DNA from: Eubacteriales bacterium
GTDB lineage: Bacteria > Bacillota > Clostridia > Oscillospirales > CAG-272
Assembly (NCBI GenBank): GCA_045644125.1
Contig: JAZRGJ010000103.1
Span: 1 to 61,305 of the forward strand
Direction of reading: 5' to 3'
Length of the DNA stretch: 61,305 nucleotides
Shown: positions 42,075 through 61,199 of the stretch, piece by piece
Position numbering within the stretch: position 1 is the first letter of the stretch
How the letters are laid out: every line of letters starts with the position of its first letter
Program-made: the position numbers and the translations under genes
The notes under the pieces: generated by a model
The model's database searches: none
Seen by the model: the letters and a program-made list of their open reading frames with translations, nothing else
What the model was told of the DNA's origin: nothing

Positions 42075-42108
42075 AAACCCGATAAATCGAAAATTAGAAG
42101 CGTATAAT
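42074..42108 (+). promoter_or_regulatory. island promoter/operator copy 3 (AAAACCCGAT-N19-TATAAT)
   Basis: AAAACCCGATAAATCGAAAATTAGAAGCGTATAAT. It starts at the stop codon of the preceding gene. The post -10 sequence (A/G)GAGCCACAAAA is shared with copy 2. Confidence 0.65.
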
Positions 42109-42153
42109 AGAGCCACAAAATAAAAAATGCATTTTTGACAAGGAGATAAAAAA

Positions 42154-42792
42154 ATGATGGATTTTAATAAATTCCCGATTTTATACGAAGAAGGGACAAG
42201 AGAGCTTGTGGAGGAATTTATATTTGATCACTTCGAGAGCTTAGATGACGGAATGATTTGTCATGAGATGGAATCGGAGTACGTACATAGCGATGTCTAT
42301 AATTTCAGCAGCGGATTTGTTGAAGGCTCTCGTTTGTATGTCACGTGCGGAATGGGCGCTCGTTCGCAGAACAGCTTGCGTCCGGGATACGATCATATTG
42401 AGCTTATGATGTTTGGAAGCGAAAATCTCAAGAATGATATTGACGTGATAAATCAGTTGGTAAACTTATCAAAATATCCCTTCCGCAATTCGAGTTGGTT
42501 AGGTCCTTTTCATACCATTAATGTTACAGAAAAAATCAAAGAAAAGTTCGGATTTTCTTACCTGTGGTTTCTCCCGGAGTTTGCAGAGCTTGAAGTGACG
42601 GATGGCTTTGAAACGTACACGGTTAAGTTTTTGCCGCTTGCGCCTCTCTATGAGGATGAAAGAGACGTGTTGGCGCGTATGGACGAATCGAGCGAAGAGC
42701 TTAGAAATAAACTTCTTGAGGCTTTGCAAGAAAACGTCAGTATGTTTCATATAGACGTTTCAAGACTTAGCTTGGCTACCGATCTTTTTTAG
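42154..42792 (+). CDS. SUFU-like (suppressor-of-fused family) domain protein, putative immunity-type protein
   Basis: The pattern YVHSDVY...LYVTCGMGARSQN...HIELMMFGSEN...LSKYPFRNSSWLGPFHTINV matches the bacterial SUFU-like domain layout (vH.D, T.GMS, ELm, W..L..la.yp, gHt). Confidence 0.45.
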   Translation: MMDFNKFPILYEEGTRELVEEFIFDHFESLDDGMICHEMESEYVHSDVYNFSSGFVEGSRLYVTCGMGARSQNSLRPGYDHIELMMFGSENLKNDIDVINQLVNLSKYPFRNSSWLGPFHTINVTEKIKEKFGFSYLWFLPEFAELEVTDGFETYTVKFLPLAPLYEDERDVLARMDESSEELRNKLLEALQENVSMFHIDVSRLSLATDLF

Positions 42793-45038: not shown

Positions 45039-45275
45039 AAAAAGAGATATTATGAATTGCAGAGTAATAGGAATCGGCGGCGCCGGTAGGAATATATTAA
45101 AAGCTTTGCTTGAATAATCGAAACGGTTTTCAAAAAATGATGCTCCGATGGATCAAGTCCAAATTTATCCCAAACAGTTTGGCATCATATAAACGTAAGG
45201 CGGCGAAGTCTCGAAGCCCGGCGCCTTGCTGATTTGCAATCAAATATCATGGATGACGAGAAATATGACGGATAA

Positions 45276-45683: not shown

Positions 45684-48600
45684 ATGGCAAAGGAACAGAT
45701 AAATAGGATAGAGTCCGAGGAAGATGCTGTATTAGCGGCAAAAGAGAAAAAAGACGTATATCATAGTTTTTTCAACAGCCTTATGAAAGGCGGCGAAATC
45801 TTCACTTGCGATGATATAGAACTTGCAATTGAGGCGCTTCAGCTTAGTAAACTCGATATTAAAGAAAGAGAAGACAAAAAGCGCAGAGAGCGAGAAGCCG
45901 AGCTTCTGAAGCAGAAACTAATTGAAGATGAAGAGCGCAGAAGAGCGGCTGAGGAACGCGCAAGAAAAAGAGCACAGAGAGCACGTGAAAAACGAGCGGA
46001 AGAAATCAGCGCCATGGAGCTCCCTCTCGACTTTGTTAATACTTTTGAGGATGACGCAAGAGCTAACGTTCATTGCGATACTATTGCAGAAGGACTTCTT
46101 GTATCCCTTGATTGCCTTGGTATCGTTGATATCGAGTTCATCTCTTCCATCACAGGCGAGGAAATGAAAACGGTTATCGAAACGCTTAAGGGCTCAATTT
46201 ATCAGAACCCTCTTATGTGGGACGAATGCTTTTACAAGGGATGGGAAACTGCGGACGAGTATCTTTCGGGAAATCTTATGCACAAGCTCAGTCTTGCCGA
46301 GGATGCAAACGAAGAATATCCCGGTATTTTCGCAGAGAACATTAAGGCTTTGAAAGAAGTTATCAGTCCCGATATCGCAAGAGACGATATTTACGTTACG
46401 CTCGGTTCTCCTTGGGTTCCTGCCGACGTAGTAGACGATTTTATACTCCATCTTGTCGGTCTTGATAAAAATGCTGACGGCGATTATCCCGAGGAAGCAG
46501 AGCCTTTCCTTACACCTGATTATATGACGGCACATGATCCGACAACAGGTCTTTGGGATATTCCGCTAAAACGAAGATTTCGTAAAAGCCATTCTCACGG
46601 AAAATGGGAAAAGTATAATTATGAGATCTGGGGAACTGAACGCATGGATATGCTCTATCTTATGGAGAATATCCTCAATATGAAAACACTTGCAGTTTAC
46701 GATCAGATAGACGAAAAAACAAGAAAGCTTAATCAGTCGGAAACGGTCAAAGTGCTTGAAAAGCAGGACAAGATGATTGCCGAATTTCAGAAATGGGTGT
46801 GGGAAGATGAGAAGAGAGCTGCGCGCATCCAATCGGCATATCAGAGAAGATACGGAAATATTAAAAAACGAGTTTTTAACGGATCATTCCTTGAATTCCC
46901 GGATATGAATCCCGAAATCGAGCTCAGAGCTCACCAAAAGGATTCCGTTGCAAGAATAATTTTCTCTCCGAATACATTACTTGCGCACGACGTTGGCGCG
47001 GGCAAAACCTATACGATGATTGCTGCCGGTATGGAGCTTCGCAGACTTGGAAAGTCGAAGAAGAATATGTACGTAATTCCCAACAACATTATGCCTCAGT
47101 GGGTTGAAATGTTCAGAAAGATGTACCCGAAAGCAAATCTTCTCGTTGTAAACAACAGAAACTTCTGCTTGAAAAAGCGTAACGAAACCTTAAAAAAGAT
47201 AATCAACGAGGATTTCGATGCTATTCTGATTACATATTCAAGCTTCGATCAGCTTTCTCTTTCAAAAAAGTATTACGAAGACTTTTACGAAAAGCAGCTT
47301 GCAATACTCGATAAGGCAAAGGAAAACTTCTATTCCAAGGCAAAAATCGAGAAAAAGCAAGAGATAGTTCAAAAGGCGCTCATGAAGCTGGAGAAAGCGA
47401 CAACCTCCGATATTTGTGATATAGCATTTGACGAGCTCGGAATCAACACACTCTTTGTGGACGAAGCCCATAATTACAAGAACGTATCGGTAGCAACGGG
47501 CATTACCAGAGTGCGCGGAATATCATCTCAAGGCTCGAAGAAATGCGATGGAATGATGGACAAGATTCACTGCGTACAAAGACAGAATCACGGTGGCAGA
47601 GTTATTCTCGCAACCGGAACACCTATCACCAACAGTATTACGGACCTCTTTATTCTTCAGAAGTATTTGCAGGACGGAGAGCTCGAATTCCTTGGTATTC
47701 AGAACTTTGACGCTTGGGTTGCTACATACGCAAAGAAAACCACCGAGTTTGAGGTTGATATTGATACGAGTAATTACCGCCTGGCAACAAGATTTTCCCG
47801 TTTCTTTAACGTGCCGGAGCTTACGTCAATTTTGTCGTCCGTTGCTGATTTTTATCACGTTGACCAAAGCGTAGGAATTCCCGAATTTGAGGGATATACG
47901 GACTCTCTTGCTGACGGAAGCGAAGACTTCATGGACTATCTTAAGGATATTTCCTCAAGAGCGGATGACGTCAGAGAGAAAAGAGTCAGCCCTAAGGAAG
48001 ATAACCTTCTTAAAATCACGACCGACGGTAGAAAAGCGGCGCTTGACATGCGACTTATCGACCTTGTTTACGGTCTTGATCCCGATTCCAAGGTGTATAG
48101 ATGCGCAGAAAACATCATGCGAATCTATGATGAGACGAGAGATAAAAAGCTTATTCAAATGGTATTTATAGATCAGTCAACGCCTAAAGCCGGGTTCAAC
48201 CTTTACGATGAGCTTAAGAGCATTCTCAAGGCTATGGGAATGTCGGAGCACGAGATAGCATACATTCACGATGCAAGCACTGAAGCCAAGAAAAAGCTTC
48301 TGTTCCGAGATTTGCGACTTGGAAACGTTGCAGTCGTTATCGGTTCAACCTTTAAGATGGGACTTGGTGTTAACGTGCAGAAAAAGCTTTGCGCGCTTCA
48401 TCACATGGACGTACCGTGGAGACCTGCGGATATGGTGCAGCGAGAGGGACGAATACTGCGTCAGGGAAACCTTTGTAAATCTGTAAAAATATTCAGATAT
48501 ATCACTAAGGGATCGTTTGATGCGTATTCCTGGCAGCTTCTTGAGGCTAAGCAGAGATTTATAAGCCAGATACTTTCCGGACATGCGACTATTCGTGAGG

Positions 48601-49316
48601 GAAGCGACATTGATGAATCGGTGCTTAACTATGCAGAGGTCAAAGCACTTGCTGTTGGTAATCCCTTGATGAAGAAGCGAATCGAGCTTATGAACGAGCT
48701 TGATAAATACAAAATTCTTAACCGCGATTACGTTGAGCAAAGAATTAAGAAGCAGGAGGAGCTTGCTTCTATCCCCGAAAAAATAAATCTTCAAAAGAAG
48801 CACATATTTAACACGAAGCGCGATATTGAGTATTACGAAAATAACAAGATTGATTACAATGAAATTCCCAAGGAAGAGCAAAAGGAAATTCGTCAGAAAA
48901 TTTTCGATGCGGTAAGAACGCACATAAATATGCCGATCGAAAAGAAGGTGCTTACTTATCAGGGATTTGACGTAGTCGTTCCTGCAAGAATGCGTCCAAA
49001 GGAAATTACGGAAAAATCAAAGGTTGAAGGTCAGAGAGGTAAAACCAAGAGCATTCCGTACGTATTTGTAAAGAGAAACGGAGCGCATTACATGGAAATC
49101 GAAAGCGTTTCCGGAATTACCAAGAGATTAAACAACCTTCTTGAAAATCTCGGAGAAAGACTTAAAAACCAGGAAAGCTATCTTGAGGCGCTCTTGCAGA
49201 AAGAAAAGGATCTTCGTGAGGAGCTTAGCTGTGAAGGCGAGTCTTACGTAGAGGAAATGGAATTGCTCAAAGAAGAAATATTAAAAATAAGTGAGGAGCT
49301 TGGACTTGTAGCATGA
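45684..49316 (+). CDS. SNF2-family (superfamily 2) helicase with a long N-terminal extension
   Basis: 1210 aa. Motif I HDVGAGKTY, II FVDEAHNYKN, III LATGTPITNS, VI QREGRILRQGN. The N-terminus contains an Arg/Glu/Lys coiled coil (KKRREREAELLKQKLIEDEERRRAAEERARKRAQRAREKRAEE) and a region (TLGSPWVPADVVDDFILHL) reminiscent of the large helicase/methylase proteins of mobile elements. No methyltransferase motif was seen. Confidence 0.8.
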   Translation: MAKEQINRIESEEDAVLAAKEKKDVYHSFFNSLMKGGEIFTCDDIELAIEALQLSKLDIKEREDKKRREREAELLKQKLIEDEERRRAAEERARKRAQRAREKRAEEISAMELPLDFVNTFEDDARANVHCDTIAEGLLVSLDCLGIVDIEFISSITGEEMKTVIETLKGSIYQNPLMWDECFYKGWETADEYLSGNLMHKLSLAEDANEEYPGIFAENIKALKEVISPDIARDDIYVTLGSPWVPADVVDDFILHLVGLDKNADGDYPEEAEPFLTPDYMTAHDPTTGLWDIPLKRRFRKSHSHGKWEKYNYEIWGTERMDMLYLMENILNMKTLAVYDQIDEKTRKLNQSETVKVLEKQDKMIAEFQKWVWEDEKRAARIQSAYQRRYGNIKKRVFNGSFLEFPDMNPEIELRAHQKDSVARIIFSPNTLLAHDVGAGKTYTMIAAGMELRRLGKSKKNMYVIPNNIMPQWVEMFRKMYPKANLLVVNNRNFCLKKRNETLKKIINEDFDAILITYSSFDQLSLSKKYYEDFYEKQLAILDKAKENFYSKAKIEKKQEIVQKALMKLEKATTSDICDIAFDELGINTLFVDEAHNYKNVSVATGITRVRGISSQGSKKCDGMMDKIHCVQRQNHGGRVILATGTPITNSITDLFILQKYLQDGELEFLGIQNFDAWVATYAKKTTEFEVDIDTSNYRLATRFSRFFNVPELTSILSSVADFYHVDQSVGIPEFEGYTDSLADGSEDFMDYLKDISSRADDVREKRVSPKEDNLLKITTDGRKAALDMRLIDLVYGLDPDSKVYRCAENIMRIYDETRDKKLIQMVFIDQSTPKAGFNLYDELKSILKAMGMSEHEIAYIHDASTEAKKKLLFRDLRLGNVAVVIGSTFKMGLGVNVQKKLCALHHMDVPWRPADMVQREGRILRQGNLCKSVKIFRYITKGSFDAYSWQLLEAKQRFISQILSGHATIREGSDIDESVLNYAEVKALAVGNPLMKKRIELMNELDKYKILNRDYVEQRIKKQEELASIPEKINLQKKHIFNTKRDIEYYENNKIDYNEIPKEEQKEIRQKIFDAVRTHINMPIEKKVLTYQGFDVVVPARMRPKEITEKSKVEGQRGKTKSIPYVFVKRNGAHYMEIESVSGITKRLNNLLENLGERLKNQESYLEALLQKEKDLREELSCEGESYVEEMELLKEEILKISEELGLVA

Positions 49317-50425
49317 GTGAAATAAGAACAAATATGCCGTCTCTTTCTGTTGAAAGGACGATAACAACACTGACACGCGCGTATACTTCGGTAATCGAAA
49401 AGGGACTTTCTCCGAAGATACTTCCTTCGGTTATGATGTGGGGGCCTCCCGGCGTAGGTAAATCGCAAGCAGTAAGAGCGATTGCCAAGGATATAGAGAA
49501 AAAGACGGGAAAAACGGTTAAAATCACTGACGTAAGACTTCTTCTCTTTAACCCCATTGACCTTAGAGGAATCCCCACTGCAAACGCAGATAAAACCCTC
49601 GCAATATGGTTAAAGCCTCAGATATTTCAGATGTCTGACAGCGATGATATAATAAACATACTTTTCCTCGACGAGATTTCGGCAGCTCCGCAATCCGTGC
49701 AAGCCGCGGCGTATCAGATAACGCTTGACAGAGTCGTAGGTGAGCATAAGCTTCCCGATAACTGCATCGTTATTGCCGCGGGTAACCGTGTTACGGATAA
49801 GTCGGTATCATTTAAGATGCCCAAAGCGCTCGCAAACCGTCTTTTGCATATAGAGGTCGAGGGAAGCTTTGGCTCATGGAAAAATTGGGCTGAAAGGAGC
49901 GGAATAAATAAAAAGGTTCTCGGTTTCCTTTCTTTCAGAACGGACAAGCTCTTCGGCTTTGACGCAAAGAATGACGATCTTGCATTCGCAACGCCTCGTT
50001 CATGGGAAATGGTATCCAATATTCTCAATAACGTATGTGATGATGTAAGCGCAATGTACCCTATGATTGCAGGGCTTATCGGCTCGGGACTTGCTCTTGA
50101 ATTTCGCTCGTGGTGCGGAATGAATTCCGATCTTCCGGACATTGAGGGCATCTTTGACGGAACTGAATTCACTATTCCCAAGACCTCCGATGCGATGTAT
50201 GCGGTTATAACGAGCATGGCAGATTACGCCAAAGACCATAAATACGAAACCGAAAGGATTGGCAACTCCTTAAACTACGCTTCAAAATTCCCGGCTGATT
50301 ACGTTGCGATACTTCTTAAAGAGTACGAAGCGATAGATGAAGAGTATAAGGACGTGCTTCTTGATATACCTGAATATACCGACCTCATAAGCAAGAGGGG
50401 AGTTTTGCGTAATGGCAGAGTATGA
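49313..50425 (+). CDS. MoxR-like AAA+ ATPase (AAA_5 / CbbQ-NorQ-CobS class)
   Basis: Walker A GPPGVGKS, Walker B ILFLDEIS, sensor region IVIAAGNRVTDKS. There is an ATGA overlap with the helicase stop. Confidence 0.8.
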   Translation: MSEIRTNMPSLSVERTITTLTRAYTSVIEKGLSPKILPSVMMWGPPGVGKSQAVRAIAKDIEKKTGKTVKITDVRLLLFNPIDLRGIPTANADKTLAIWLKPQIFQMSDSDDIINILFLDEISAAPQSVQAAAYQITLDRVVGEHKLPDNCIVIAAGNRVTDKSVSFKMPKALANRLLHIEVEGSFGSWKNWAERSGINKKVLGFLSFRTDKLFGFDAKNDDLAFATPRSWEMVSNILNNVCDDVSAMYPMIAGLIGSGLALEFRSWCGMNSDLPDIEGIFDGTEFTIPKTSDAMYAVITSMADYAKDHKYETERIGNSLNYASKFPADYVAILLKEYEAIDEEYKDVLLDIPEYTDLISKRGVLRNGRV

Positions 50426-51956
50426 CGGTGAAACCATGGAGATCGTAAGAAGGCTTCAAGCGACAAGAATGGCTGTGCTGTCAAAGCAGCCGTTCTTCGG
50501 AGTTCTTCTTATGAATTTCCGTATGGCGCTGGATAAATCCACGTCTACGTCATATACCGACGGTATCAGGCTTTCGTTTAACCCCGATTTTCTCAAATCT
50601 CTCAGCGACTCGGAGCTTGAGCTTGTTATGATGCATGAAGCGCTTCACGCAGCTCTCGGTCATCCATTCAGAGTGCAAGCGGATTACGAGCTTGAGCTTT
50701 ACGACCTCGCTTGCGATATAGTAGTAAACTCAAATATATTTTATAGCTTTGGCGAAGATGAGAAGAAAATTACAATAAAGCAATTCGGTGTTCTTCCTCA
50801 CAAAACTCCAAGCGGTAAAGAGGGATATGAGCGTACCGTTGAAGAGGTTTACAACGAACTTTTAAAATCGTCAGCCACAGCAAAAAAGAAAAAACGAGGA
50901 AAAGCCGACGGCGCGGGAGGCGGAGGTAAAAGCGATTCCGATGCCAAAACCGACACGGACGATAGTTCTGATGATTCGTCACAAGATGAGCGCGGTGAGG
51001 ATAAAACGGGCGAGACGGAAGAAAGAGATAAATCCTCTTCGAAAGCATCGAGAGGCGGTAAAGGAAAAAACAAGGAAAATTCGAATGTCAACGAAGAGCT
51101 CAGCATTGAAGCATTGATAAGCTCAATAAAAAAACGTAATAAATTTTTAAAAGCAAAATACGATTCTCCGTCATATAAAGAACGGTGTACGATAAAGGTG
51201 GAAGTAACAAGCAGTAATGCGGTTTTTGACGATCATACTTTTTGGCAGGGGGATGATCCGGATAATTCAAACTCTGCATTGTGGTATGACAGAACAATGC
51301 GAGCTACTGAAATTATATTAGAAAAAGAAAAATCCCACGTTGGTTTTGGAGGACCGCCATTGTGCGCGCAACGTTTGTTGAAGGAATTGCGCGAAACCGC
51401 AGTAGATTGGCGCACGCTTTTGAATGATTTTATTCAGGAAGAGGTAAACGACTATTCGTTTTCGCCCCCAGACAGAAGAATGGATGATTCCCCTTTCTTC
51501 TTGCCGGATTTCAATGAAAAGGACGATTCGGTGAAAAACATATGGTTTTTAATTGATACATCGGGCTCGATAGGTGATGAGGCTATATCTGCGGCATATT
51601 CCGAGATTATAAGTGCTATGGAAATGTTTAATAGCTTTGAAGGCTTGTTAAGCTTTACCGAGGTGTTTGTTACCGAGCCTATTCCTTTTTGCTCGCCGGA
51701 AGAATTGCTTAAAATAAAGCCGGTTGGCGGCGGTGGAAATGATTTTGGAGAGATATTCAGATTCATGCAGAGAAATATGATGGATAAGCTGCCTGCGTCT
51801 ATAGTAATTTTGACGGATGGTTACGATACATATCCCGAGGAATCCGAAGCATTAGGAATCCCGGTGTTATGGTTAATTAACAATAAAGAGGCGATAGATC
51901 CGCCGTGGGGAAAATTTGCAAGGTTTGAAATAGGAAAAAAAGGAGAATTAAAATGA
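50412..51956 (+). CDS. vWA-domain protein with an N-terminal HExxH metallopeptidase-like domain (DUF2201-type)
   Basis: MMHEALHAALGH (HExxH); a Lys/Asp/Ser-rich low-complexity linker; the MIDAS motif FLIDTSGSIGDE and the VWA-like ILTDGYDTYP. It overlaps the MoxR gene by 14 nt. Confidence 0.75.
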   Translation: MAEYDGETMEIVRRLQATRMAVLSKQPFFGVLLMNFRMALDKSTSTSYTDGIRLSFNPDFLKSLSDSELELVMMHEALHAALGHPFRVQADYELELYDLACDIVVNSNIFYSFGEDEKKITIKQFGVLPHKTPSGKEGYERTVEEVYNELLKSSATAKKKKRGKADGAGGGGKSDSDAKTDTDDSSDDSSQDERGEDKTGETEERDKSSSKASRGGKGKNKENSNVNEELSIEALISSIKKRNKFLKAKYDSPSYKERCTIKVEVTSSNAVFDDHTFWQGDDPDNSNSALWYDRTMRATEIILEKEKSHVGFGGPPLCAQRLLKELRETAVDWRTLLNDFIQEEVNDYSFSPPDRRMDDSPFFLPDFNEKDDSVKNIWFLIDTSGSIGDEAISAAYSEIISAMEMFNSFEGLLSFTEVFVTEPIPFCSPEELLKIKPVGGGGNDFGEIFRFMQRNMMDKLPASIVILTDGYDTYPEESEALGIPVLWLINNKEAIDPPWGKFARFEIGKKGELK

Positions 51957-53911
51957 ACGATCTTCAGAAAATGAAGGAGCTTATAAAGAAAATAAACGAG
52001 GCGGATAAGGCGTATTTTGGGGAAGACAAGCCCATTATGACCGACAGAGAATACGACGGTTTAATCCTTGAGCTTAAAATTCTCGAAAGAACCACGGGAG
52101 TTCGTTTTGCAAATTCTCCTACAGGAAGAATTCCCGGCGATGCCAAGGCAGGCCTTGAAACAGTTAAGCACTCAAAGCCTATGCTTTCTTGCCAAAAGAC
52201 GAAAGAGGTGCGTGACGTGGTAGAGTTTGCGGGGGAACACGAGATTGTTCTTTCTTGGAAAATGGACGGCCTTACGCTCGTTTTGCGTTATGAGAACGGA
52301 AAATTCAAGCAAGCGATAACAAGAGGCGCGGAGGGAATCGTCGGCGAGGACGTTACGCACACCGTTAAAAATTTCAGAAACATTCCTCTCGTCATTCCCT
52401 CTAAGGAATCATTCGAGGTAAGGGGAGAGGGCGTCGTTTCCTGGGATGACCATAACATACTCACAAGGCTTCACGATGGGACATCGCACCCGAGAAGCGT
52501 TGCATCGGGAGCGGTAAGAAGCCTTGAGGCAGACGTCGGAAAGCTTTCGCATCTGGATTTTTTCGCATTCGAGCTTATTAAGGATAATGCGCCGGACAGC
52601 AAAATGGAGCAGCTTGAATTTCTTCAAAAAAACAACTTCGACGTAGTCGAGCATAAGCTTGTGGAAGAAAGCTCTGAAATTGAAAAGGCTATCGAAGAAT
52701 TTGCTCCCTCGGGATTCAAATATCCCGTTGACGGTATAGTTGCGGAATACGACGATATAGAATACGGCAAGAGCCTTGGCGCAACGGCGCACCATGAAAA
52801 ACGAATGATTGCTCTTAAATGGCGTGATGAAGTTAAGGAAACGAGATTCCGCGGAGTTGAGCTTAAGACGACGAGAACGGGCGTTGTAAGCATTGTCGGA
52901 AAGTTTGACGAGGTGCTTATAGACGGCACGAGAGTACACAGAGCAAGTCTGCATAACCTCTCCAACTTCGAAAAGTACAGCTTTGGCATCGGCGATATAA
53001 TCCGAGTTTATAAGGCTAATATGATCATTCCTCAAATTGCGGAAAACTTGACGCGCAGCGGTACTTACAATCTGCCAAAGCACTGCCCTTGCTGCGGAAC
53101 GGAGCTGACGGTGAAGCTGTCCATTTCGGGCGTTAAAGAGCTTTATTGCCCAAACGAACAGTGTATTGCCAGACACGCAAGAAAAATTGCGCGCTATTGC
53201 GATAAAAATGCAATGAACATAGATGGTCTCTCGGCTTCGGTTATAGAAAATATGATGGCTTACGGTTGGGTGCAGAGCTTTAAAGACCTCTATCACCTTG
53301 ACCTTCACAGAGATGAAATTGTCTTGCGACCGGGATTTGGACAAGATAAATATCAAGCTATGATAGAAGCGATAGAGGAGAGTCGACACTGTCATATGTA
53401 TCAGTTTCTCGTTGGAATAGGAATACCCAACCTCGGTAACGAAGCGGCGAAAACGCTCCATCAGTATTACTACGGCAACTTCAGAAAATTTGAGGAAGCC
53501 ATTTCGGAAAACTTTAATTTTGCCCGTATAGAAGGTATCAGTGAAGCAACAAGCCGTTCAATACATACCTGGTTTTCTGACAAAACTAACATTAGAATAA
53601 TTAACTCGCTTATACCCGAGCTTAAATTTATCAGCAAGACTGATATTATCAAAGATAAGGAAAACCCCTTCCTCGATACGAAGGTCGTTGTAACCGGAAG
53701 TTTTGAGAGCTTTTCGAGAGAAGGAATAATCGAGCTTCTCACCGCGCTCGGCGCAAAAGTTTGCGATAACGTTACCGAGGACGTGAACTATCTGATTTAC
53801 GGCGCAGTTCCCGGCGGCAAAAAAATAAGCAACGCGATAAAATTCGGCGTGAATATGATAAGCGAAAAGAACTTTGCAGAAATGCTTGGAACCGGTGAAG
53901 ATAAATATTGA
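51953..53911 (+). CDS. ligA: NAD-dependent DNA ligase (LigA-type), island-encoded copy
   Basis: The Ia domain AYFGEDKPIMTDREYDGLILELKILE, the adenylation motif SWKMDGLT (KxDG), the Zn finger CPCCGTEL...CPNEQC, an HhH region and a C-terminal BRCT (VVVTGSFESFSREGIIELLTALGAKV). There is an ATGA overlap with the upstream gene. Confidence 0.85.
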   Translation: MNDLQKMKELIKKINEADKAYFGEDKPIMTDREYDGLILELKILERTTGVRFANSPTGRIPGDAKAGLETVKHSKPMLSCQKTKEVRDVVEFAGEHEIVLSWKMDGLTLVLRYENGKFKQAITRGAEGIVGEDVTHTVKNFRNIPLVIPSKESFEVRGEGVVSWDDHNILTRLHDGTSHPRSVASGAVRSLEADVGKLSHLDFFAFELIKDNAPDSKMEQLEFLQKNNFDVVEHKLVEESSEIEKAIEEFAPSGFKYPVDGIVAEYDDIEYGKSLGATAHHEKRMIALKWRDEVKETRFRGVELKTTRTGVVSIVGKFDEVLIDGTRVHRASLHNLSNFEKYSFGIGDIIRVYKANMIIPQIAENLTRSGTYNLPKHCPCCGTELTVKLSISGVKELYCPNEQCIARHARKIARYCDKNAMNIDGLSASVIENMMAYGWVQSFKDLYHLDLHRDEIVLRPGFGQDKYQAMIEAIEESRHCHMYQFLVGIGIPNLGNEAAKTLHQYYYGNFRKFEEAISENFNFARIEGISEATSRSIHTWFSDKTNIRIINSLIPELKFISKTDIIKDKENPFLDTKVVVTGSFESFSREGIIELLTALGAKVCDNVTEDVNYLIYGAVPGGKKISNAIKFGVNMISEKNFAEMLGTGEDKY

Positions 53912-53932: not shown

Positions 53933-54295
53933 ATGACCGTAAACGATGATTTTATAATTGTTGATACCATTACAGAAAAAACAACAATACAAGGTAAAAA
54001 ACGCAAAAATCTCAAAACGGTTGTTATTCCGGAAGGCGTAAAAACAATTTCCGGCAGCGCTTTTTGTGGCTGCGAAAACCTTAAAGCCATATATATTCCC
54101 GGAAGTATACAAATGATTCAGCCTTTCGCTTTCAAAGGCTGTGATAAATTAAGAAATGTATATATTGAAAAAACAGCATGGGATTTCAATGGGTTATATG
54201 AGCTTAAAAACTGTAAGAATGCAGTCCTGTACGGATCGGGGTGCTATTTTAGAGAATTTGCTTCGAAGATCAATCTTCCATATGTTGAAGCGTAA
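53933..54295 (+). CDS. short BspA-type leucine-rich-repeat protein (no signal peptide)
   Basis: LKTVVIPEGVKTISGSAFCGCENLKAIYIPGSIQMIQPFAFKGCDKLRNVYI is the LRR_5 pattern. Confidence 0.6.
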   Translation: MTVNDDFIIVDTITEKTTIQGKKRKNLKTVVIPEGVKTISGSAFCGCENLKAIYIPGSIQMIQPFAFKGCDKLRNVYIEKTAWDFNGLYELKNCKNAVLYGSGCYFREFASKINLPYVEA

Positions 54296-54833: not shown

Positions 54834-54850
54834 TAGCTTTTGGTCCAAAT

Positions 54851-54879
54851 TTGTCCTAGTGAATGTTGTATCATATAAA
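54851..54879 (+). promoter_or_regulatory. promoter with atypical -35 (TTGTCC-N17-TATAAA), family copy a
   Basis: TTGTCC at 54851-54856 and TATAAA at 54874-54879. Confidence 0.45.
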
Positions 54880-54938
54880 TGTAAGCGAACCCGCGAGGTA
54901 AGCGCTGAAAACATTTATATTTTGGAGGTAAATTTACT

Positions 54939-55040
54939 ATGGCTAAGACTAAAAAAGGTAACAAGATCGTTTGCGTCGGCGGATATGTTAAGTCTGACGG
55001 AACTAAAGTTAAAGGTCATCGCCGCTCCACTCCTCGCTGA
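54939..55040 (+). CDS. small basic protein, 33 aa (MAKTKKGNKIVCVGGYVKSDGTKVKGHRRSTPR)
   Basis: Not in the track because it is too short. GGAGG lies 9 nt upstream of the ATG. A GC-rich 9-bp hairpin (TCGCCGCTC/GAGCGGCGA) straddles the stop. Confidence 0.4.
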   Translation: MAKTKKGNKIVCVGGYVKSDGTKVKGHRRSTPR

Positions 55041-55123
55041 GCGGCGACGTAATTCGGCAAAAGAGATTTAAGAAACTATATTACGACAACATTTAAGGTT
55101 AAATTTGAAAGGGGTATTCTAAA

Positions 55124-55297
55124 ATGTGGGGAAATACGAAAACTTTTAAAATAGTTTATTACGACAATAATGTAAAGTCCGGCGACAAACGCAGGTCGAC
55201 TTTTATTGAGGCTTATGACAGAAGCGACGCTATCTATAAGTTTCATCAGGACTACGGGCAGGATTACGTCGTAAGAGATTGCATTGAAATCGGATAA
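55124..55297 (+). CDS. small hypothetical protein, 57 aa
   Basis: Not in the track. The ATG is preceded by GAAAGGGG. The protein is MWGNTKTFKIVYYDNNVKSGDKRRSTFIEAYDRSDAIYKFHQDYGQDYVVRDCIEIG. Confidence 0.35.
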   Translation: MWGNTKTFKIVYYDNNVKSGDKRRSTFIEAYDRSDAIYKFHQDYGQDYVVRDCIEIG

Positions 55298-55311: not shown

Positions 55312-55340
55312 GTAGATCCGTCATTCAATGACGGATCTAC
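55312..55340 (+). repeat. 14-bp perfect inverted repeat (GTAGATCCGTCATT c AATGACGGATCTAC); possible terminator without a T-tract
   Basis: Read directly from the sequence. It is followed by GACAAAA...TTTTGTC, a second short inverted repeat that overlaps the next promoter. Confidence 0.5.
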
Positions 55341-55367
55341 GACAAAACCAAGAAGTATTGGATGATT

Positions 55368-55396
55368 TTGTCCTATAAAGCATGTTATAATATAAT
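55368..55396 (+). promoter_or_regulatory. promoter with atypical -35 (TTGTCC-N17-TATAAT), family copy b
   Basis: TTGTCC at 55368-55373 and TATAAT at 55391-55396, upstream of the NMNAT-macrodomain gene. Confidence 0.45.
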
Positions 55397-55427
55397 CGTA
55401 AAATAACATTGGAGGAAAGCAGATATT

Positions 55428-56990
55428 ATGAAAATCACCGTTCTTTTCGGAAGTTTTAATCCGCTTACTAACGCGCATGTCGCAGCGATGAAAAACGCAG
55501 TCAAGGCAATCGGCGCCGACCTTGGCTTGTTCGTTGCCGCTAATGGACAGTACCTCAAGAGGAAGACGCTCAAGATAGGCGATCTCTTCTACCTCTCCGA
55601 GGACGAGAGAAAAGAGAGCGTCGAGCAGGTTTGCGCCTCTGAGCCTAAGCTTCAGTTCTGGGGTTACGAGCTTGGTGGCATAAATCCCAATCGCTTTAAG
55701 ACGCTTTGCAAGATTCAGAATCAGTATCCCGATGCCGAGATCTACGAGATCCAAGGGGCTGACAAGGTACGTACGCTCTTGAAATCCGGTTACGGCGAGG
55801 AATACGTTGGCAAGTTTCGCTTCGTTGTCTTCGAGAGATACGGCATCGACCTTGAAGCCATATTCCGTGAAAACCCGTTGCTTGATAAGCTTAAAGATTC
55901 TTTCGTTATTCTTCCACCGCTTGACGAGATCAGCTCTACAGAAGTTCGCCGTCGCTTCTATGCGGGCGAGGACTTTTCCGATCTTGTGCCGCCGGCGGTT
56001 GTTGAGATCGTGAGCAAGCACAAGCCCTCGGATTTCAGCATCTCATTTAAGGAGCGTATGAAGGTCATGATGTCAAGCGGCAGGTTTGGCCGTCAGAACG
56101 CCCGCAAAGAGATTTATAAGCTCAACACAGAACTGTTTCACGCATGGCAGAACGGAACCGCCGATATCGACCTCGGCGACCACAAGGCATTCCTTGGCGG
56201 CGCGAAGCTCTATAAGAAGCCCTTCGACGTCAGCAATATGGGCGAGGTGTACGAGTCAACTGTAACAGGCTGCGTCAACGCCGACTGCATGGATGTTGCC
56301 GAGCAGCTCATCGCACAGGGCTATCATCCCGCAATCCTTAACCTTGCTTCAGCTAAGAGACCTTGCGGTGGTTGGGATGCCGGTATGGGCGCGCAGGAAG
56401 AGTCGCTTTGCTTTTCCTCTACTCTCAGTCAGTCGCTGTACCAGTTTGGTGACCCCAATTATAAGAACGCCCCCGATAGCGGTGCCCCCACAAGGGAAAT
56501 CGCCTATCCGGACGACATCCACTACGGCGGCATTTACTCTCCCGACGTTACATTCTTCAGAAACAACATCTCCAAGTACTACACCCTCAGAGAAGAGTCC
56601 TTTAAGTGCGACGTTATCACCGTGGCGGCGCTTTGCTTCAACGGTAAGTCCCACTATGCGGGTATCGATGAGCTTTCGTATCAGGCGGAAGACGGCGGTT
56701 TTACCCCCGAGGGCAAGGAGATTATGCTCAGCAAGATCCGCACTATCTTCCGCATGGGTGTGGAGCATGGTAAGGATGCGCTTGTGCTCGGCGCATTTGG
56801 CTGCGGTGCTTATGCGCTCCAGCCCTCTGCGGTTGCCCCTTTGTTTCGCGTAGTTATGGAGGAACCTGAGTTCAAGAACAAGTTCAAGCAGCTTGTCTTT
56901 GCCATCCTTGAGCGTCCTCGCAGACCGCAGGGGCTTGACGGCAAGTTCGCTCCCTTCTACCGTGAGTTTGGCGCTTATTCGCTAAAATAG
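55428..56990 (+). CDS. fusion protein: nicotinate/nicotinamide-mononucleotide adenylyltransferase (NadD/NMNAT-like) plus a bacterial-type PARG-like macrodomain (TIGR02452/DUF2263)
   Basis: The N-terminus has ITVLFGSFNPLTNAHVAAM (GxFxPxxxxH) and EISSTEVRRRF (ISSTxxR). The C-terminus has ILNLASAKRPCGGWDAGMGAQEESLC (the GGG-X6-8-QEE type signature) and LVLGAFGCGAY. Confidence 0.8.
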   Translation: MKITVLFGSFNPLTNAHVAAMKNAVKAIGADLGLFVAANGQYLKRKTLKIGDLFYLSEDERKESVEQVCASEPKLQFWGYELGGINPNRFKTLCKIQNQYPDAEIYEIQGADKVRTLLKSGYGEEYVGKFRFVVFERYGIDLEAIFRENPLLDKLKDSFVILPPLDEISSTEVRRRFYAGEDFSDLVPPAVVEIVSKHKPSDFSISFKERMKVMMSSGRFGRQNARKEIYKLNTELFHAWQNGTADIDLGDHKAFLGGAKLYKKPFDVSNMGEVYESTVTGCVNADCMDVAEQLIAQGYHPAILNLASAKRPCGGWDAGMGAQEESLCFSSTLSQSLYQFGDPNYKNAPDSGAPTREIAYPDDIHYGGIYSPDVTFFRNNISKYYTLREESFKCDVITVAALCFNGKSHYAGIDELSYQAEDGGFTPEGKEIMLSKIRTIFRMGVEHGKDALVLGAFGCGAYALQPSAVAPLFRVVMEEPEFKNKFKQLVFAILERPRRPQGLDGKFAPFYREFGAYSLK

Positions 56991-57000
56991 TTTGTTAACA

Positions 57001-57026
57001 GCTGCAAGGATTTTTATCCTTGCAGC
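57001..57026 (+). terminator. hairpin (GCTGCAAGGAT tttt ATCCTTGCAGC) downstream of the fusion gene; a weak terminator with no T-tract
   Basis: An 11-bp perfect stem, 10 nt after the stop. Confidence 0.4.
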
Positions 57027-57061
57027 AAAATTGTTAAAATTAAAAGCGTTTAGGGATAGAT

Positions 57062-57090
57062 TTGTCCGATAAGATATGGTATAATATAAA
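57062..57090 (+). promoter_or_regulatory. promoter with atypical -35 (TTGTCC-N17-TATAAA), family copy c
   Basis: TTGTCC at 57062-57067 and TATAAA at 57085-57090, upstream of the Sel1 gene. Confidence 0.45.
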
Positions 57091-57121: not shown

Positions 57122-58345
57122 ATGAGTTACATCCACAACAATAAAATCAACATCGAAGAAATTATTGAAAAAGCAAATCTTGGAGATGCAGAGTCACAGT
57201 ATACATTGGGAAGAGCCTATTGTAGCGGCCGTTATGTAGAGCGTGATTATAGTGCGGCAGTTAGATGGTTTGAAAAGTCTGCCGAACAAGGAAATGAAGA
57301 TGCTATGATTTTTCTTGGAACATGTTATATTCAAGGTTATGGTGTGGAAAAGAACGTGTGGGAAGGCATTAAACTGTGGACTATGGCAGCCGATCGTGAC
57401 AATAAACAAGCTATGATCAAGCTGGCTTCTTTACATTACAATGGTTCTTATAGCTTTGATGTCAATTATAACGAAGCGTTCAAATGGTACATCAAAGCTG
57501 ATTGTAAGTCCAGAATTGGTGAATGCTATCTCTATGGCCGTGGAGTTGAGCAGGACTATAAAATGGCTGTAAAATACTTTATTGAGGCAGATGACAGAGA
57601 TATGCTTGGTGAGTGCTATCTTCACGGCTGGGGGGTAGAGAAAAATGTTAAAAAAACGGTTGAACTTTGGGAAAGCATATCGGAGCATACGAATCATACC
57701 ATAAATGACAAGCTTTGGCATCTTTACCTTGATGGTAACTTTATAGATCCTGATTATGAGAAGGCCTTTCGGCTATTGAATAACGAAGCGTTTAGAGAAG
57801 ACGGTGATCCGGAAGGTGGTGATTATGAGGCGCGCTACGAGTTGGCCCGTTGTTATTATGAAGGTAAGGGTGTCAAAAAAGACACGAAGCTCGCCCTTAA
57901 ACTATATAGATCAACCATTGAACTCTTTTACAGATATGACGGATCAGCTTCCATTTCAGAGGAACCGGATTGTATTCTAAACACTCGTAGAATTCTCGTG
58001 AAGCACGGTTATAAAAGTGAAATCAATAAAATTAAGAAAGCGGCTGAAGCCGGTGATGCCAAAGCCGCGGAAATTCTGGAAGAGGCTGGAATTGAATTTA
58101 TCGCGCCTCAGCAATCAACTCCTATTTCGACTGAGCTTACAGTTGAACCGATATTAAAGGCAGCTCCGAAACGTGAAGCTCCTATTGATATTGCCGTTGG
58201 AGAAACTGTTATTCACAAGATTTTCGGAGAGGGTATTGTTCGCAAATCCGAAAATGGATATATTATTGTTGCATTTGCTTGCGGAGAAAAGAAATTTTTG
58301 AATCCCGAAGCTTTTTACAACGGTTTTTTTAGTCGCGACGTCTGA
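57122..58345 (+). CDS. Sel1-repeat (TPR-like) protein with a C-terminal UvrD/PcrA-C-terminal-like (Tudor/DUF3553-like) domain
   Basis: Repeated units AESQYTLGRAYCSGRYVERDYSAAVRWFEKSAEQGNEDAMIFLGTCY... are the Sel1 pattern. The C-terminus GETVIHKIFGEGIVRKSENGYIIVAFACGEKKFL resembles the N-terminus of the 409-aa protein at 36371-37600. Confidence 0.7.
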   Translation: MSYIHNNKINIEEIIEKANLGDAESQYTLGRAYCSGRYVERDYSAAVRWFEKSAEQGNEDAMIFLGTCYIQGYGVEKNVWEGIKLWTMAADRDNKQAMIKLASLHYNGSYSFDVNYNEAFKWYIKADCKSRIGECYLYGRGVEQDYKMAVKYFIEADDRDMLGECYLHGWGVEKNVKKTVELWESISEHTNHTINDKLWHLYLDGNFIDPDYEKAFRLLNNEAFREDGDPEGGDYEARYELARCYYEGKGVKKDTKLALKLYRSTIELFYRYDGSASISEEPDCILNTRRILVKHGYKSEINKIKKAAEAGDAKAAEILEEAGIEFIAPQQSTPISTELTVEPILKAAPKREAPIDIAVGETVIHKIFGEGIVRKSENGYIIVAFACGEKKFLNPEAFYNGFFSRDV

Positions 58346-58571
58346 TTTCTCAATAAAAAACAAGCCTTACGGTTTATGAAGCTTATTGCCATTCTCAAAA
58401 CGCATATTATGAGGAAATCGGCTACCGAATGCGCAGAGATTGAGCTATCAATGTCCGTAAATTAGTACACGAAGTGTGTTATAATAAGTTAGCCAAGTAA
58501 TAAAGGACGATTTTATCTTTTAAACCATATTATAATCTAAATGTACTAAAACAAAAAAGGAAATTGTAAAA

Positions 58572-59162
58572 ATGATCGACGAAAAAAGACTTGAAACAAC
58601 ACCCGTTCAGCATATCCGCAATCTTATTGAGAGCATCAAAGACGGTAAGCTGAGCGTTACGTATTATGATCCGATTGAGCCCTCGTACACCAGAAGCTAT
58701 GACGTGTCATGCTCGGCGGTGGATGCCGATGAATTCGTTTCGAAATATGAGGCTCTTACAAATGCCCTTGAAGCGATTGGAAAAGCGCGCGAAAAGCTCA
58801 ATTCCGGAGCCGGTGCAGAAGACGTGCTTACGCCCGAGCAGATTGATGTTTGGAATACATACGTATGTGATTTTAAGGAGAACTTTGATGCGGGCGAATA
58901 TAAGCTTGACGAGCTTTACATAAGACGGGAGGACGGAGACGAGCTCAGCGAAGAGGAGCATGAAGTTCTCGAGCGTCACTACGAGTGGTTTGAAACACAG
59001 TGCTTAAAGCGTTTGCCTAAAAAGGCGTATTCTCCGATGCTTCTTGTGAATAAAGCTCAGAGATATGAATATTTCATCAGTCAGAATGCGCCAAAAACCG
59101 TGATTGACGAAGAAGGACGTTGCCTTGCCGAAGAGCTGATTCTCTATTATGCAGCAAAATAA
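58572..59162 (+). CDS. hypothetical protein (196 aa)
   Basis: An AAGGAAA RBS. Acidic, with no recognisable motif. Confidence 0.45.
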   Translation: MIDEKRLETTPVQHIRNLIESIKDGKLSVTYYDPIEPSYTRSYDVSCSAVDADEFVSKYEALTNALEAIGKAREKLNSGAGAEDVLTPEQIDVWNTYVCDFKENFDAGEYKLDELYIRREDGDELSEEEHEVLERHYEWFETQCLKRLPKKAYSPMLLVNKAQRYEYFISQNAPKTVIDEEGRCLAEELILYYAAK

Positions 59163-59212
59163 AACCCTTGTTTGAGAATAATGCAAACAAAAATCATATT
59201 AAGGAGTTTAAA

Positions 59213-59863
59213 ATGGATACGCATCTTCTTAACGGGAAAAGTACAGAAGATTTATTTGCCGATACAGAATACACGTGGGATCTGACAGAAGATTCAGAGG
59301 CGGAACTCTCTGGCGAGAAATTTAATTATCATTTCATTTTCGGAAATGAAAAAATCGTGTTCATCAAAGCCGGCGCAGGTGGATCTTCACGAGGATATAA
59401 GGATAAATATATTAAGATGGCAGAGCGGATCCACGAGAGAATCGGCGCTACTGTAATCTGCGCTTCCAATCCTATAGATCCGATATGTGATGCTCCTGAT
59501 GCTGAAGAAATTCGTTGGGCAGTAAACAAAATGGGACTTGCGAGCTTTGAGCTATATCTTCTGGGCGTCTCAGATGGCGCCTATTTAAATCTTAATTTAG
59601 CAAGCCAATTTCCTGAAACGGTAAAATGGATCGGTATAAACGCCTCTTTTGTTGAAATATCTGATCTGGAAGAAAAATTGAAGACGTTGCCAAATGTATT
59701 CAAGCTTATGATTTACGGTACGCGAGATGACAATTTCAATGAGGTCGTACCTGAACTCAGCGAAATGAGTTGTGACAATTTCACTTTGAAATTCGTCGAA
59801 GGTGCAGACCATAGCTTCAAGGATATGCTTGAGGAATTTGTTTCACTATCTGATTTTGTATAA
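59213..59863 (+). CDS. alpha/beta hydrolase fold protein
   Basis: The start is at the ATG at 59213 behind AAGGAG. Nucleophile elbow GVSDGA, acid YGTRDD and His in GADHSF. Confidence 0.5.
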   Translation: MDTHLLNGKSTEDLFADTEYTWDLTEDSEAELSGEKFNYHFIFGNEKIVFIKAGAGGSSRGYKDKYIKMAERIHERIGATVICASNPIDPICDAPDAEEIRWAVNKMGLASFELYLLGVSDGAYLNLNLASQFPETVKWIGINASFVEISDLEEKLKTLPNVFKLMIYGTRDDNFNEVVPELSEMSCDNFTLKFVEGADHSFKDMLEEFVSLSDFV

Positions 59864-60509: not shown

Positions 60510-61199
60510 ATGACCTTCGGAGAAATGGAACAAAAGTTAATCGAGGAATGCACGAAAGATCCCATTGATTTAGATAAAATTAAAACGCTTATCGATAATG
60601 GAGCTGACATTAATGCTTGTGGGGGAAAATGGAATACACCATTGAACAGAGAGATTGTAAATTATTACGCATGTAGAGGTGAAAAGTTTGAAAATCGGAG
60701 TTTGTCAAATTTCGCGCAAGTGATGGAGCTGCTTATCAACAGAGGAATGCTGTTGAATCCTAAGCCGGGTGACAGCCACGGATTTTTGTTGCCGGATTTG
60801 CAATTTTTGCCTCCGGAGAAAATCTGTATTGATACATATAAAATGCTATTGGAAAAAGGTAATCCTTCATTTGAAGACCTGGACTACGCATTGTATTGCT
60901 ATGTATGCAATATGCATAGTACGGATGATGATTACGATTTTTACTCTTGGAAAAAACCGAAGATGTACAAGAAAAAAGATTGTCTAAATTACTTTCTGGA
61001 AATGACATATTGGACTTGTGCATATAAGGTAAAGCTGTATCCTGAAAAATGCGCTGAGGCTTTGCTTGCTTTTGATTGGTTTAATCGAGAAAAATACACA
61101 GTGAAGCTGAAAAGAGGACGTCAAACGTCGCGAGTTGTTATTGAAGACGATGAAACCCAACAGAGCGCCATAATTTATAGCTACACAGAAGATGATTGA
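60510..61199 (+). CDS. hypothetical protein with an ankyrin-repeat-like motif
   Basis: An AAGGAAG RBS. IKTLIDNGADINACGGKWNTPLNREIV fits the ankyrin consensus (L...GAD.N..d..g.TPL). The remainder is unrecognised. Confidence 0.4.
   Translation: MTFGEMEQKLIEECTKDPIDLDKIKTLIDNGADINACGGKWNTPLNREIVNYYACRGEKFENRSLSNFAQVMELLINRGMLLNPKPGDSHGFLLPDLQFLPPEKICIDTYKMLLEKGNPSFEDLDYALYCYVCNMHSTDDDYDFYSWKKPKMYKKKDCLNYFLEMTYWTCAYKVKLYPEKCAEALLAFDWFNREKYTVKLKRGRQTSRVVIEDDETQQSAIIYSYTEDD

Follow-up and report, generated by a model that had tools for sequence, protein, structure and literature searches.

An adenylyltransferase-PARG fusion on a mobile-type island of gut Clostridia, a candidate cassette against NAD-based attack

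The window analysed here is a 61,305-nt stretch (positions 1 to 61,305, forward strand) of contig JAZRGJ010000103.1 of an Eubacteriales bacterium (assembly GCA_045644125.1), in which positions 55428..56990 of the positive strand hold a coding sequence for a 520-amino acid (aa) protein. This protein joins an N-terminal adenylyltransferase domain of the NadD/NMNAT fold (aa 1-200, 55428..56027) to a C-terminal bacterial-type poly(ADP-ribose) glycohydrolase (PARG) module (aa ~205-520, 56040..56987) made up of a helical N-extension and a macrodomain. An earlier note, made from the sequence alone, had described the frame as a fusion of a nicotinamide mononucleotide (NMN)/nicotinic acid mononucleotide (NaMN) adenylyltransferase and a microbial PARG; the open reading frame (ORF) list confirms a single frame with all four quoted motifs located as described, and both halves are backed by profile hidden Markov models, a confident AlphaFold2 (AF2) model and Foldseek. 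We propose, with a probability of roughly 0.5, that the fusion is a cassette of conjugative or integrative elements of gut Clostridia (Acutalibacteraceae/Oscillospiraceae), encoding a two-domain enzyme directed against attack based on nicotinamide adenine dinucleotide (NAD).

The C-terminal module is recognized by Pfam PARG_cat_microb (PF10021; aa 245-379, E = 1.9e-21, 77.4 bits against a cut-off of 23.5) and by the NCBIfam model TIGR02452 (aa 258-498, 106.3 bits against a cut-off of 50). Sequence searches of the PDB with the fusion protein retrieved the PARGs of D. radiodurans (4e-12) and T. curvata (2e-11), and Foldseek, over residues ~205-520, matched PARG structures 3SIH and 5ZDB at E ~1e-13, with template modelling (TM) scores of 0.76-0.77 on the target. 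As in these enzymes, the macro core of the AF2 model is preceded by helices (aa 207-258). The PARG signature lies in the block LNLASAKRPCGGWDAGMGAQEESLC (aa 304-328, 56337-56411, positive strand), whose CGG-X7-QEE portion (aa 313-325) reads C313-G-G-(WDAGMGA)-Q323-E324-E325, with the spacing of seven residues and the QEE intact. The diphosphate loop GAFGCGAY (aa 455-462, 56790-56813, positive strand) aligns to GAWGCGVF of the D. radiodurans enzyme. Both features are conserved among 120 close homologues, with the GG-X7-QEE motif kept in about 115 and the loop, as G[AG][FL][GS]CGAY, in more than 90%. Close relatives of the PARG module are joined to ADP-ribosylglycohydrolase (ARH), NADAR, HD and WYL-WCX sensor domains, a pattern of partners typical of ADP-ribose-reversal modules in conflict systems. 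The closest PARG modules found in other fusions (P0139, P0140, P0145, P0161, P0173 and P0174) have the architectures DUF6939-LRR_5-WYL-WCX-PARG, WYL-WCX-PARG, cREC-PARG-HTH-NADAR, DUF1810-PARG-ARH and ARH-PARG.

The N-terminal domain matches Pfam CTP_transf_like (PF01467; aa 6-176, E = 1.2e-9) above the superfamily cut-off, and the PDB sequence search with the fusion protein retrieved mycobacterial NadD at E = 4e-9. Over residues 1-200, Foldseek returned NadD of E. faecium, B. anthracis and mycobacteria with TM scores of 0.81-0.85. The motifs for ATP binding are present as T14-N-A-H17, in which the Gly of (H/T)xGH is replaced by Ala, and I168-SSTEVR174 (55929-55949); they belong to the longer stretches GSFNPLTNAH (aa 8-17, 55449-55478) and ISSTEVRRRF (aa 168-177), both on the positive strand. 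The TxxH variant resembles the eukaryotic GSFNPITxxH motif. At the EcNadD specificity positions, compared for a preference between NMN and NaMN, the residues of the fusion differ throughout. Across 17 fusions with identities down to 29%, residues G8-S-F-N-P12, H17, G110-A-D-K113, S169, S170 and R174 are invariant, and over 90% of the 120 nearest cluster representatives (69-100% identity) retain GSFNPxTxxH and ISSTxxR. The GADK pattern (aa 110-113) occurs in all 120 of these, many of which also match at an earlier GADKGLF site near residue 30. Judged from the alignments, the handling of ATP looks intact in this domain and the acceptor pocket looks remodelled.

The AF2 model of the 520-aa chain, built on 17 diverse homologues, has a predicted local distance difference test score (pLDDT) of 91.7 and a predicted TM score (pTM) of 0.80, the latter suggesting for a two-domain chain a fixed arrangement of the predicted domains. 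Full-length homologues form at least 120 clusters in a 90%-identity database, and a 50%-identity library adds roughly twelve more clusters of full-length fusions, with identities as low as 30%. The named sources are metagenome-assembled genomes of Acutalibacteraceae, Oscillospiraceae, Eubacteriales and "Clostridia" from the human and ruminant gut, and the source records name the homologues only as "TIGR02452 family protein". A pattern scan of 185,579 species-representative genomes, which detects close relatives only, yielded 16 loci, 13 of which encode the fusion with both domains at full or nearly full length. The earlier note had allowed that the architecture might prove to be a common housekeeping fusion; the survey instead found a fusion that recurs in variable, mobile-type contexts and is rare in species genomes. 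No description of an NMNAT-PARG fusion was found in the full-text literature searched, although the architecture may be listed in the de Souza & Aravind 2012 survey of NAD-utilising systems. PHROGs and PADLOC profile searches gave no match for the fusion, and no near-identical DNA was found in GenBank phages. Matches in PLSDB and GenBank phages are single-domain proteins, either PARG-only or NMNAT-only, from Deinococcus plasmids, Bacillus phage G (gp114) and Lak megaphages. Among predicted viral structures in BFVD, a two-domain homologue was sought and not found, the best matches being PARG-only proteins with a query TM of 0.49; several giant viruses in the same database encode PARG and NMNAT-type proteins as separate genes.

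The genes around the fusion were compared across related loci (L001-L023), and their variable flanks, which carry relaxase/ParB, FtsK-type ATPase, PcfJ and single-stranded DNA-binding protein (SSB) genes, uphold the claim that the gene is borne by a mobile element. In L001 the fusion lies beside a relaxase (PF03432) and ParB, as the second gene diverging from the relaxase/ParB pair, and in L003 and L004 an SSB, a transglutaminase-core protein and an orphan N6-methylase (N6_Mtase) are encoded upstream of it. PcfJ and a TIR-LRR protein are found near the fusion in L021, a type I restriction-modification (RM) system and a PLD nuclease beside it in L022, and a 983-aa FtsK/SpoIIIE protein 7 kb away in L008. 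An all-against-all comparison of the loci revealed a set of shuffled, recurrent cassettes encoding an alpha/beta-hydrolase, a helical 200-aa protein, WYL-LRR, Sel1, DUF2779, AAA-M41 and PcfJ proteins, with no partner of the fusion invariant. In L023 the fusion is accompanied only by a 53-aa ORF and a WYL-LRR gene between thrS and chromosomal genes, and in L005 it stands alone, adjoining the same chromosomal genes. The shuffled context, the lack of an invariant partner and the solo placement argue for an autonomous accessory cassette, and against both a housekeeping gene and one half of a toxin-antidote pair. A WYL-LRR protein neighbours the NMNAT-PARG gene in 7 of the 16 loci. A conserved partner of the ADP-ribosyltransferase (ART) or NADase toxin type was considered and rejected; the recurrent neighbours are the alpha/beta-hydrolase and the helical protein, and Pfam detected no ART family among the neighbours.

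An association of PARG with NAD synthesis recurs independently in phages. A scan of IMG/VR with the N-domain motif returned 80 phage contigs (L025-L104), many of 90-215 kb and from gut metagenomes, that encode a stand-alone NMNAT with ~33% identity to the N-terminal domain of the fusion. In all 80 the NMNAT gene adjoins that of NAPRTase (PncB), and 71 of them encode PncA (an isochorismatase-type nicotinamidase), PncB, NMNAT and NadE (NAD synthase) together, usually with a DUF5662 gene; the set of four is a complete salvage route from nicotinamide to NAD. Five of the 80 contigs carry a 260-aa PARG_cat_microb gene directly upstream of PncA. Examples of the clusters lie at 9761-15008 in L025 and 7724-11402 in L028. 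The NMNAT frame of L025 (13634-14230) contains one in-frame stop through which the tblastn match runs, and which could reflect stop-codon reassignment, a pseudogene or a sequencing error. In IMG/VR the fusion itself was not found, only separate NMNAT and PARG genes, and the PncA-PncB-NMNAT-NadE cluster was not described in the literature searched on phage NAD reconstitution.

Many defence systems work by depleting NAD. From the architecture, the motifs and these associations we infer both enzyme activities, their substrates and a biological role, as follows. The PARG module would hydrolyse ADP-ribose linkages, whether ribose-ribose bonds or bonds to nucleic-acid 2'-OH or phosphate ends, freeing ADP-ribose (ADPR) and restoring the modified target. 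The N-terminal domain would draw on ATP to accelerate the final step shared by the routes of NAD resynthesis, from NaMN or NMN to nicotinic acid adenine dinucleotide (NaAD) or NAD, with the other steps left to PncA, PncB and NadE of the host. Acting jointly, the two halves would weaken effectors that deplete NAD (TIR/SIR2-type) or ADP-ribosylate their targets and that the element or its host encounters. Terminal ADP-ribose is cut from poly(ADP-ribose) by bacterial PARGs (PMC8120803; PMC11833690), which also strip ADP-ribose from RNA 2'-OH groups and from DNA and RNA phosphate ends (PMC11833690). The phage NAD-reconstitution pathways NARP1-3 overcome NAD-depleting defences (10.1101/2024.02.11.579819; PMC13464706), and RyDEP, a phage ribose-ribose glycosidase, destroys cyclic ADPR signals and feeds NARP1 (PMC13232231).

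The coupling of ADP-ribose removal to NAD resynthesis that had been suggested in the earlier note holds in part: the link of PARG to NAD synthesis reappears as a phage gene neighbourhood, but ADPR has no direct chemical route to NAD. NMNAT and NadD enzymes move AMP from ATP onto NMN or NaMN, and ADPR is not a substrate of NMNAT. Since the cassette also holds no enzyme that makes NMN or NaMN, a direct ADPR-to-NAD coupling is unsupported, and on its own the cassette cannot turn ADPR and nicotinamide back into NAD.

This last point weighs against the proposed role, as do several others. Searches within 10 kb of the fusion found no Nampt, PncB, NRK or NadE gene in 24 related loci and, by tblastn with phage queries, no PncA, PncB or NadE gene in the 24 loci or the window; the Pfam contexts likewise hold no mononucleotide-supplying gene. 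The TIGR00482 NadD equivalog scores 79.2 bits against a cut-off of 112.45, although this sub-threshold match spans nearly the whole model (positions 2-192 of 194). In NadD and NMNAT enzymes a conserved Trp (W117 in both EcNadD and MtNadD) stacks on the pyridine ring of NMN or NaMN, and MAFFT and HMMER agree in aligning Ser120 of the fusion (codon 55785-55787, positive strand) with this residue. Members of the clade at 65% identity or more read K-S-[SGA]-[HY]-G at the Trp site, F or M occurs in a few intermediate forms, and deep-branching fusions and phage homologues keep W; the substitution makes the acceptor uncertain in the clade, where NMN or NaMN may not be the acceptor. From the alignment, the His or Tyr two residues past Ser120 might replace the stacking role. 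Cys313 of the window protein stands in place of the first Gly in the PARG GGG triplet, and both QEE and the GxGCG loop have degenerated in distant fusions (29-38% identity), so PARG catalysis is not universal in the wider family. The persistence of the N-domain motifs in these distant members marks the adenylyltransferase as the family's constant part. Closer alignment of the catalytic residues, on which the first reading had been left to depend, finds the catalytic motifs of both halves intact across ~120 close homologues. As for the setting, a full-length homologue is absent from PLSDB plasmids and GenBank phages (50,697 phage records), and, for a possible place in the leading region, a relaxase adjoins the fusion in one locus only.

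An alternative that survives comparatively well, although we regard it as unlikely, retains the same biochemistry and makes the host the beneficiary, with the fusion as acquired immunity against NADase or ART interbacterial toxins or phage ADP-ribosyltransferases. The ARH-type immunity protein Tri1 and the acquired interbacterial defence arrays on integrative and conjugative elements of Bacteroidales are of this kind. The island of the window is rich in the orphan immunity-array families SUFU, Sel1, ankyrin and LRR_5, related islands carry defence-like type I RM, PLD, TIR-LRR and AAA+M41 genes (the last with IetA-like PADLOC matches), and in L005 and L023 the fusion stands alone between chromosomal genes. 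A role as a defence module has also been proposed for bacterial PARG, directed at toxins that ADP-ribosylate their targets, RhsP2 among them (PMC11833690). However, no cognate toxin or secretion system lies nearby, and the relaxase, ParB, SSB, orphan methylase and PcfJ of several loci fit genes that serve the element at least equally well; from sequence alone, benefit to the element and benefit to the host are indistinguishable.

Clearly less probable is a reading in which the N-terminal domain is not an NMN/NaMN adenylyltransferase and instead acts on the PARG product or on an ADPR-derived molecule, the two domains forming a substrate-channelling pair. The options include a reversible reaction of ADPR and pyrophosphate (PPi) to ATP and ribose-5-phosphate, and cleavage by the PARG of the ribose-ribose bond of cyclic ADPR. 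The eukaryotic route from PARG to NUDIX5 makes ATP from ADPR and PPi. Trp is replaced by Ser throughout the crown clade as the ATP-binding motifs stay invariant, the domains are fused with a high pTM that suggests a fixed arrangement, and PARG chemistry is the hydrolysis of a ribose-ribose O-glycoside, the bond type of the cyclic nucleotide 2'cADPR. RyDEP offers a precedent for a ribose-ribose glycosidase paired with NAD rebuilding, but it is also the only enzyme known to hydrolyse gcADPR (PMC13232231). Against the reading, the conserved His or Tyr beyond Ser120 could take over stacking, and the deeper fusions and phage homologues keep the Trp, the phage ones alongside PncB and NadE, a sign that the ancestral enzyme carried out ordinary NaMN chemistry. 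To our knowledge, no NMNAT-fold enzyme acts on ADPR or ribose-5-phosphate. In its fullest form, a doubtful one, a single polypeptide on conjugative elements would have its PARG cleave ribose-ribose or nucleic-acid ADP-ribose bonds, possibly the 1''-2' bond of the Thoeris signal 2'cADPR, and its Trp-less domain handle ADPR or rebuild NAD, for instance by ADPR + PPi <-> ATP + ribose-5-phosphate. If true, this would be a channelled, one-protein counter to TIR, SIR2 and ART defences, and would give the NMNAT fold an activity not known before.

Improbable, in our view, is a nucleic-acid repair module in which the PARG removes ADP-ribose caps, the NAD-dependent ligase (LigA) of the island seals the ends and the NMNAT regenerates NAD from the NMN that LigA releases. 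A complete LigA with adenylation, OB, HhH and BRCT domains is indeed encoded 1.5 kb upstream of the fusion (51953-53911), with the N-terminal Ia-type motif DKAYFGEDKPIMTDREYDGL read by eye. A ligase-PARG-Pnkp operon occurs in D. radiodurans and PARG acts on ADP-ribosylated phosphate ends (PMC11833690), and the WYL-PARG fusions suggest some connection with nucleic acids. However, LigA is missing from the 10-kb flanks of all other related loci, on which ground an obligatory tie of the fusion to the ligase was rejected, and in the window the two genes are set apart by four small, unrelated genes, along with separate promoters. That the gene is an ordinary housekeeping NadD of the host with an extra domain is very improbable, despite full-length similarity to NadD and the lack of any other nadD in the 61-kb window, given the variable, non-syntenic, mobile-type neighbourhoods, a GC content unlike both the island and the chromosomal part, the 16 loci (13 with both domains) in a species-genome scan that detects close relatives only, the sub-threshold equivalog score and the lost Trp.

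The proposed counter-defence cassette has partial counterparts among known systems. Like the bacterial PARGs (DUF2263/TIGR02452; T. curvata 3SIG and D. radiodurans DRB0099, 5ZDB), it has a macrodomain with helical extension, QEE and a GxxGCG loop, and it differs from them in the joined adenylyltransferase, the Cys for the first GGG Gly and an identity of 23-25% to solved PARGs. With NadD and NMNAT enzymes (TIGR00482; 5DB4, 8AIH, 1KAQ and human NMNAT1/3) it shares the Rossmann-type fold (TM 0.83-0.85) and the (T/H)xxH, GxD and ISSTxxR motifs, but not a score above cut-off, the pyridine-stacking Trp (Ser120 in the fusion) or the end of the chain, which in the fusion is the PARG module. A single polypeptide combining an NMN adenylyltransferase with an enzyme acting on ADP-ribose is known from NadM-Nudix (Synechocystis slr0787 and Francisella), in which, however, the Nudix domain destroys free ADPR where the macrodomain would release it, and which is chromosomal and metabolic. 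NARP2 (Nampt and NMNAT, in KVP40) and NARP3 (PnuC and a NadR-like protein) likewise place an adenylyltransferase of NAD synthesis on a mobile element, presumably offsetting NAD depletion, whereas the fusion has no mononucleotide-supplying partner, occupies a conjugative-element rather than a phage setting and carries a PARG in place of a Nudix, kinase or transporter. The PncA-DUF5662-PncB-NMNAT-NadE clusters of gut phages hold the nearest stand-alone relatives of the N-terminal domain, with the shared SFNPxTxxH motif and, in some, PARG and NMNAT genes as neighbours; they differ in being separate genes of a complete salvage pathway, in keeping the Trp and in residing on phage genomes, many of 90-215 kb.

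RyDEP, a phage RyR-domain glycosidase, and NARP1 also tie a ribose-ribose glycosidase genetically to NAD rebuilding on a mobile element, but the fold of RyDEP is unrelated to PARG, and its product ADPR feeds Adps/Namat whereas the fusion has no route from ADPR to NMNAT (PMC13232231). Macrodomain antitoxins of the DarG type have an adjacent ADP-ribosyltransferase toxin, where the neighbours of the fusion are instead alpha/beta-hydrolase, helical, Sel1, DUF2779, WYL-LRR and AAA-M41 proteins. Anti-defence genes have been found in the leading region of conjugative elements, downstream of oriT, where they enter the recipient first (PMC11541004); the island of the window shares with such regions a one-directional array, and related loci share SSB, ParB and an orphan methylase. 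In L001 the fusion is near relaxase and ParB, and other loci show different neighbours.

Within the window, the fusion gene is equipped as a monocistronic, self-contained cassette, with its own promoter box, ribosome-binding site, coding sequence and 3' hairpin. The GGAGG ribosome-binding site (55411..55415, positive strand) lies 12 nt 5' of the ATG, and a terminator-like hairpin on the same strand, CTGCAAGGA-TTTTT-ATCCTTGCAG (57002..57025), begins 12 nt 3' of the stop codon and closes the cassette. The promoter that had been read by eye, TTGTCC-N17-TATAAT, is present at 55368-55396 within a box at 55360-55402 (positive strand). This is a match to consensus only, made more credible by the presence of the same box before at least four other island genes. 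The box of ~36 nt, with the family consensus GGAT.ATTTTGTCC...TATAATATAA, has at least five copies in the island (45157-45199, 54843-54885, 55360-55402, 57054-57089 and 58505-58540), and a second family with the consensus AAAGCC.TGAAAACCCGAT..ATC.GAAA..GCGTATAAT occurs at 37804-37847, 41353-41434 and 42072-42129. Two families of near-identical boxes before many island genes suggest modular cassettes under shared control. In relatives, a dyad within the first-family box, ATGGGA-N8-TCCCAT, overlaps the -35 element and may serve as an operator. An inverted repeat with a 13-bp stem (55312..55340), detected in a scan for terminator-like structures between a 57-aa ORF and the fusion promoter, probably serves as a terminator or insulator. 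Rfam searches found neither a NAD riboswitch nor any other family near the fusion gene, the sole match in the window being a T-box at 14.7 kb.

A small basic ORF of 33 aa (MAKTKKGNKIVCVGGYVKSDGTKVKGHRRSTPR; 54941..55042, positive strand) recurs upstream of the fusion gene as a conserved companion, and the 57-aa ORF (55124-55297) is inserted between the two. Homologues of 35-40 aa precede the fusion in L001, L002, L003, L007 and L008, and the family as a whole (33-40 aa) has its own ribosome-binding site and the pattern MAKT.KGNK...H.RS.P. In L001, L002, L003 and L007 the small ORF lies immediately 5' of the fusion with no promoter box between them, and the two are apparently co-transcribed; in L008 and the window a second promoter box separates them. 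The counterpart in relatives of the box copy 5' of the small ORF (54843..54885, positive strand) apparently drives both the small ORF and the fusion.

The fusion gene is richer in GC than its surroundings, as had been claimed by eye, with 52.7% GC (64% at third codon positions) against 40.0% in the rest of the island, a difference of 12 points, and 30-38% in the immediate flanks. In 13 of 14 related loci (among L001-L023) the gene lies 3-12 GC points above its surroundings, and across these loci its GC content follows the overall GC of the host (39-60%). So steady an offset speaks against acquisition in one recent transfer from a donor rich in GC.

The first 37.6 kb of the window is a chromosomal part of 45% GC, encoding an MFS transporter, a DAO/Rieske oxidoreductase, a Mn catalase and the T-box leader (RF00230, 101.6 bits; 14706-14941, positive strand), which lies directly 5' of an ORF starting at 14944. 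The remainder, from 37.8 to 61.3 kb, is the island, of 40% GC with every gene on the positive strand. In order, it encodes a WYL protein, several unknowns, a SUFU-family protein, a soluble AAA+M41 protease, a 1210-aa SNF2 helicase, a MoxR-type AAA protein, a DUF2201 VWA/metallopeptidase, the NAD-dependent ligase, an LRR_5 protein, the fusion, a Sel1 protein, two conserved unknowns and an ankyrin-like protein. No tRNA gene that could mark an integration site and no second nadD were found in the window. The block running from the SNF2-type helicase through the MoxR-like AAA and DUF2201 genes to the complete ligase (45684-53911) is absent from all 20 of the loci L001-L020, and its helicase has weak PADLOC matches to DrmD and DpdE. 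The soluble FtsH-like protein (AAA and peptidase M41, no membrane part detected) is encoded at 43238-44494 in the window and at 9008-10270 in L001, 13242-14606 in L009 and 14012-15289 in L022, with PADLOC matches to IetA (E = 2e-16). The SUFU, LRR_5 (BspA-type), Sel1-repeat and weak ankyrin proteins, of families often seen as immunity or anti-effector proteins, are encoded at 42154-42792, 53933-54295, 57122-58345 and 60510-61199, respectively.

Downstream of the fusion, 59210-59863 and 58572-59162 encode its two commonest neighbours, the alpha/beta-hydrolase and the helical protein. The hydrolase has a G-x-S-x-G elbow and matches cinnamoyl esterases in a PDB profile search (E = 5e-5); the helical ~200-aa protein shows, at its C-terminus, a weak profile match to a segment of the RNA polymerase beta' subunit (E = 0.017). 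A 52-nt inverted repeat (37539-37590, negative strand; 58203-58254, positive strand) encodes a ~17-aa motif (…KIFGEGIV…) in two proteins, at the N-terminus of a 409-aa protein at the island border (36371-37600, negative strand) and at the C-terminus of the Sel1 protein.

Bacteria, phages and plasmids use NAD depletion and ADP-ribosylation as central weapons in their conflicts, and the known NAD-centred counter-measures (NARP1-3, sponges, RyDEP and DarG/NADAR) come almost all from phages or toxin-antitoxin pairs. The PncA-PncB-NMNAT-NadE cluster of the 80 large gut phages may give phages one more way of restoring NAD, and the loss of the pyridine-stacking Trp hints at changed substrate use in the NMNAT fold. 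If functional, the fusion would be a compact one-gene tool for ADP-ribose removal and NAD resynthesis, and would extend NAD-centred counter-defence to the conjugative elements of abundant, uncultured gut Clostridia.

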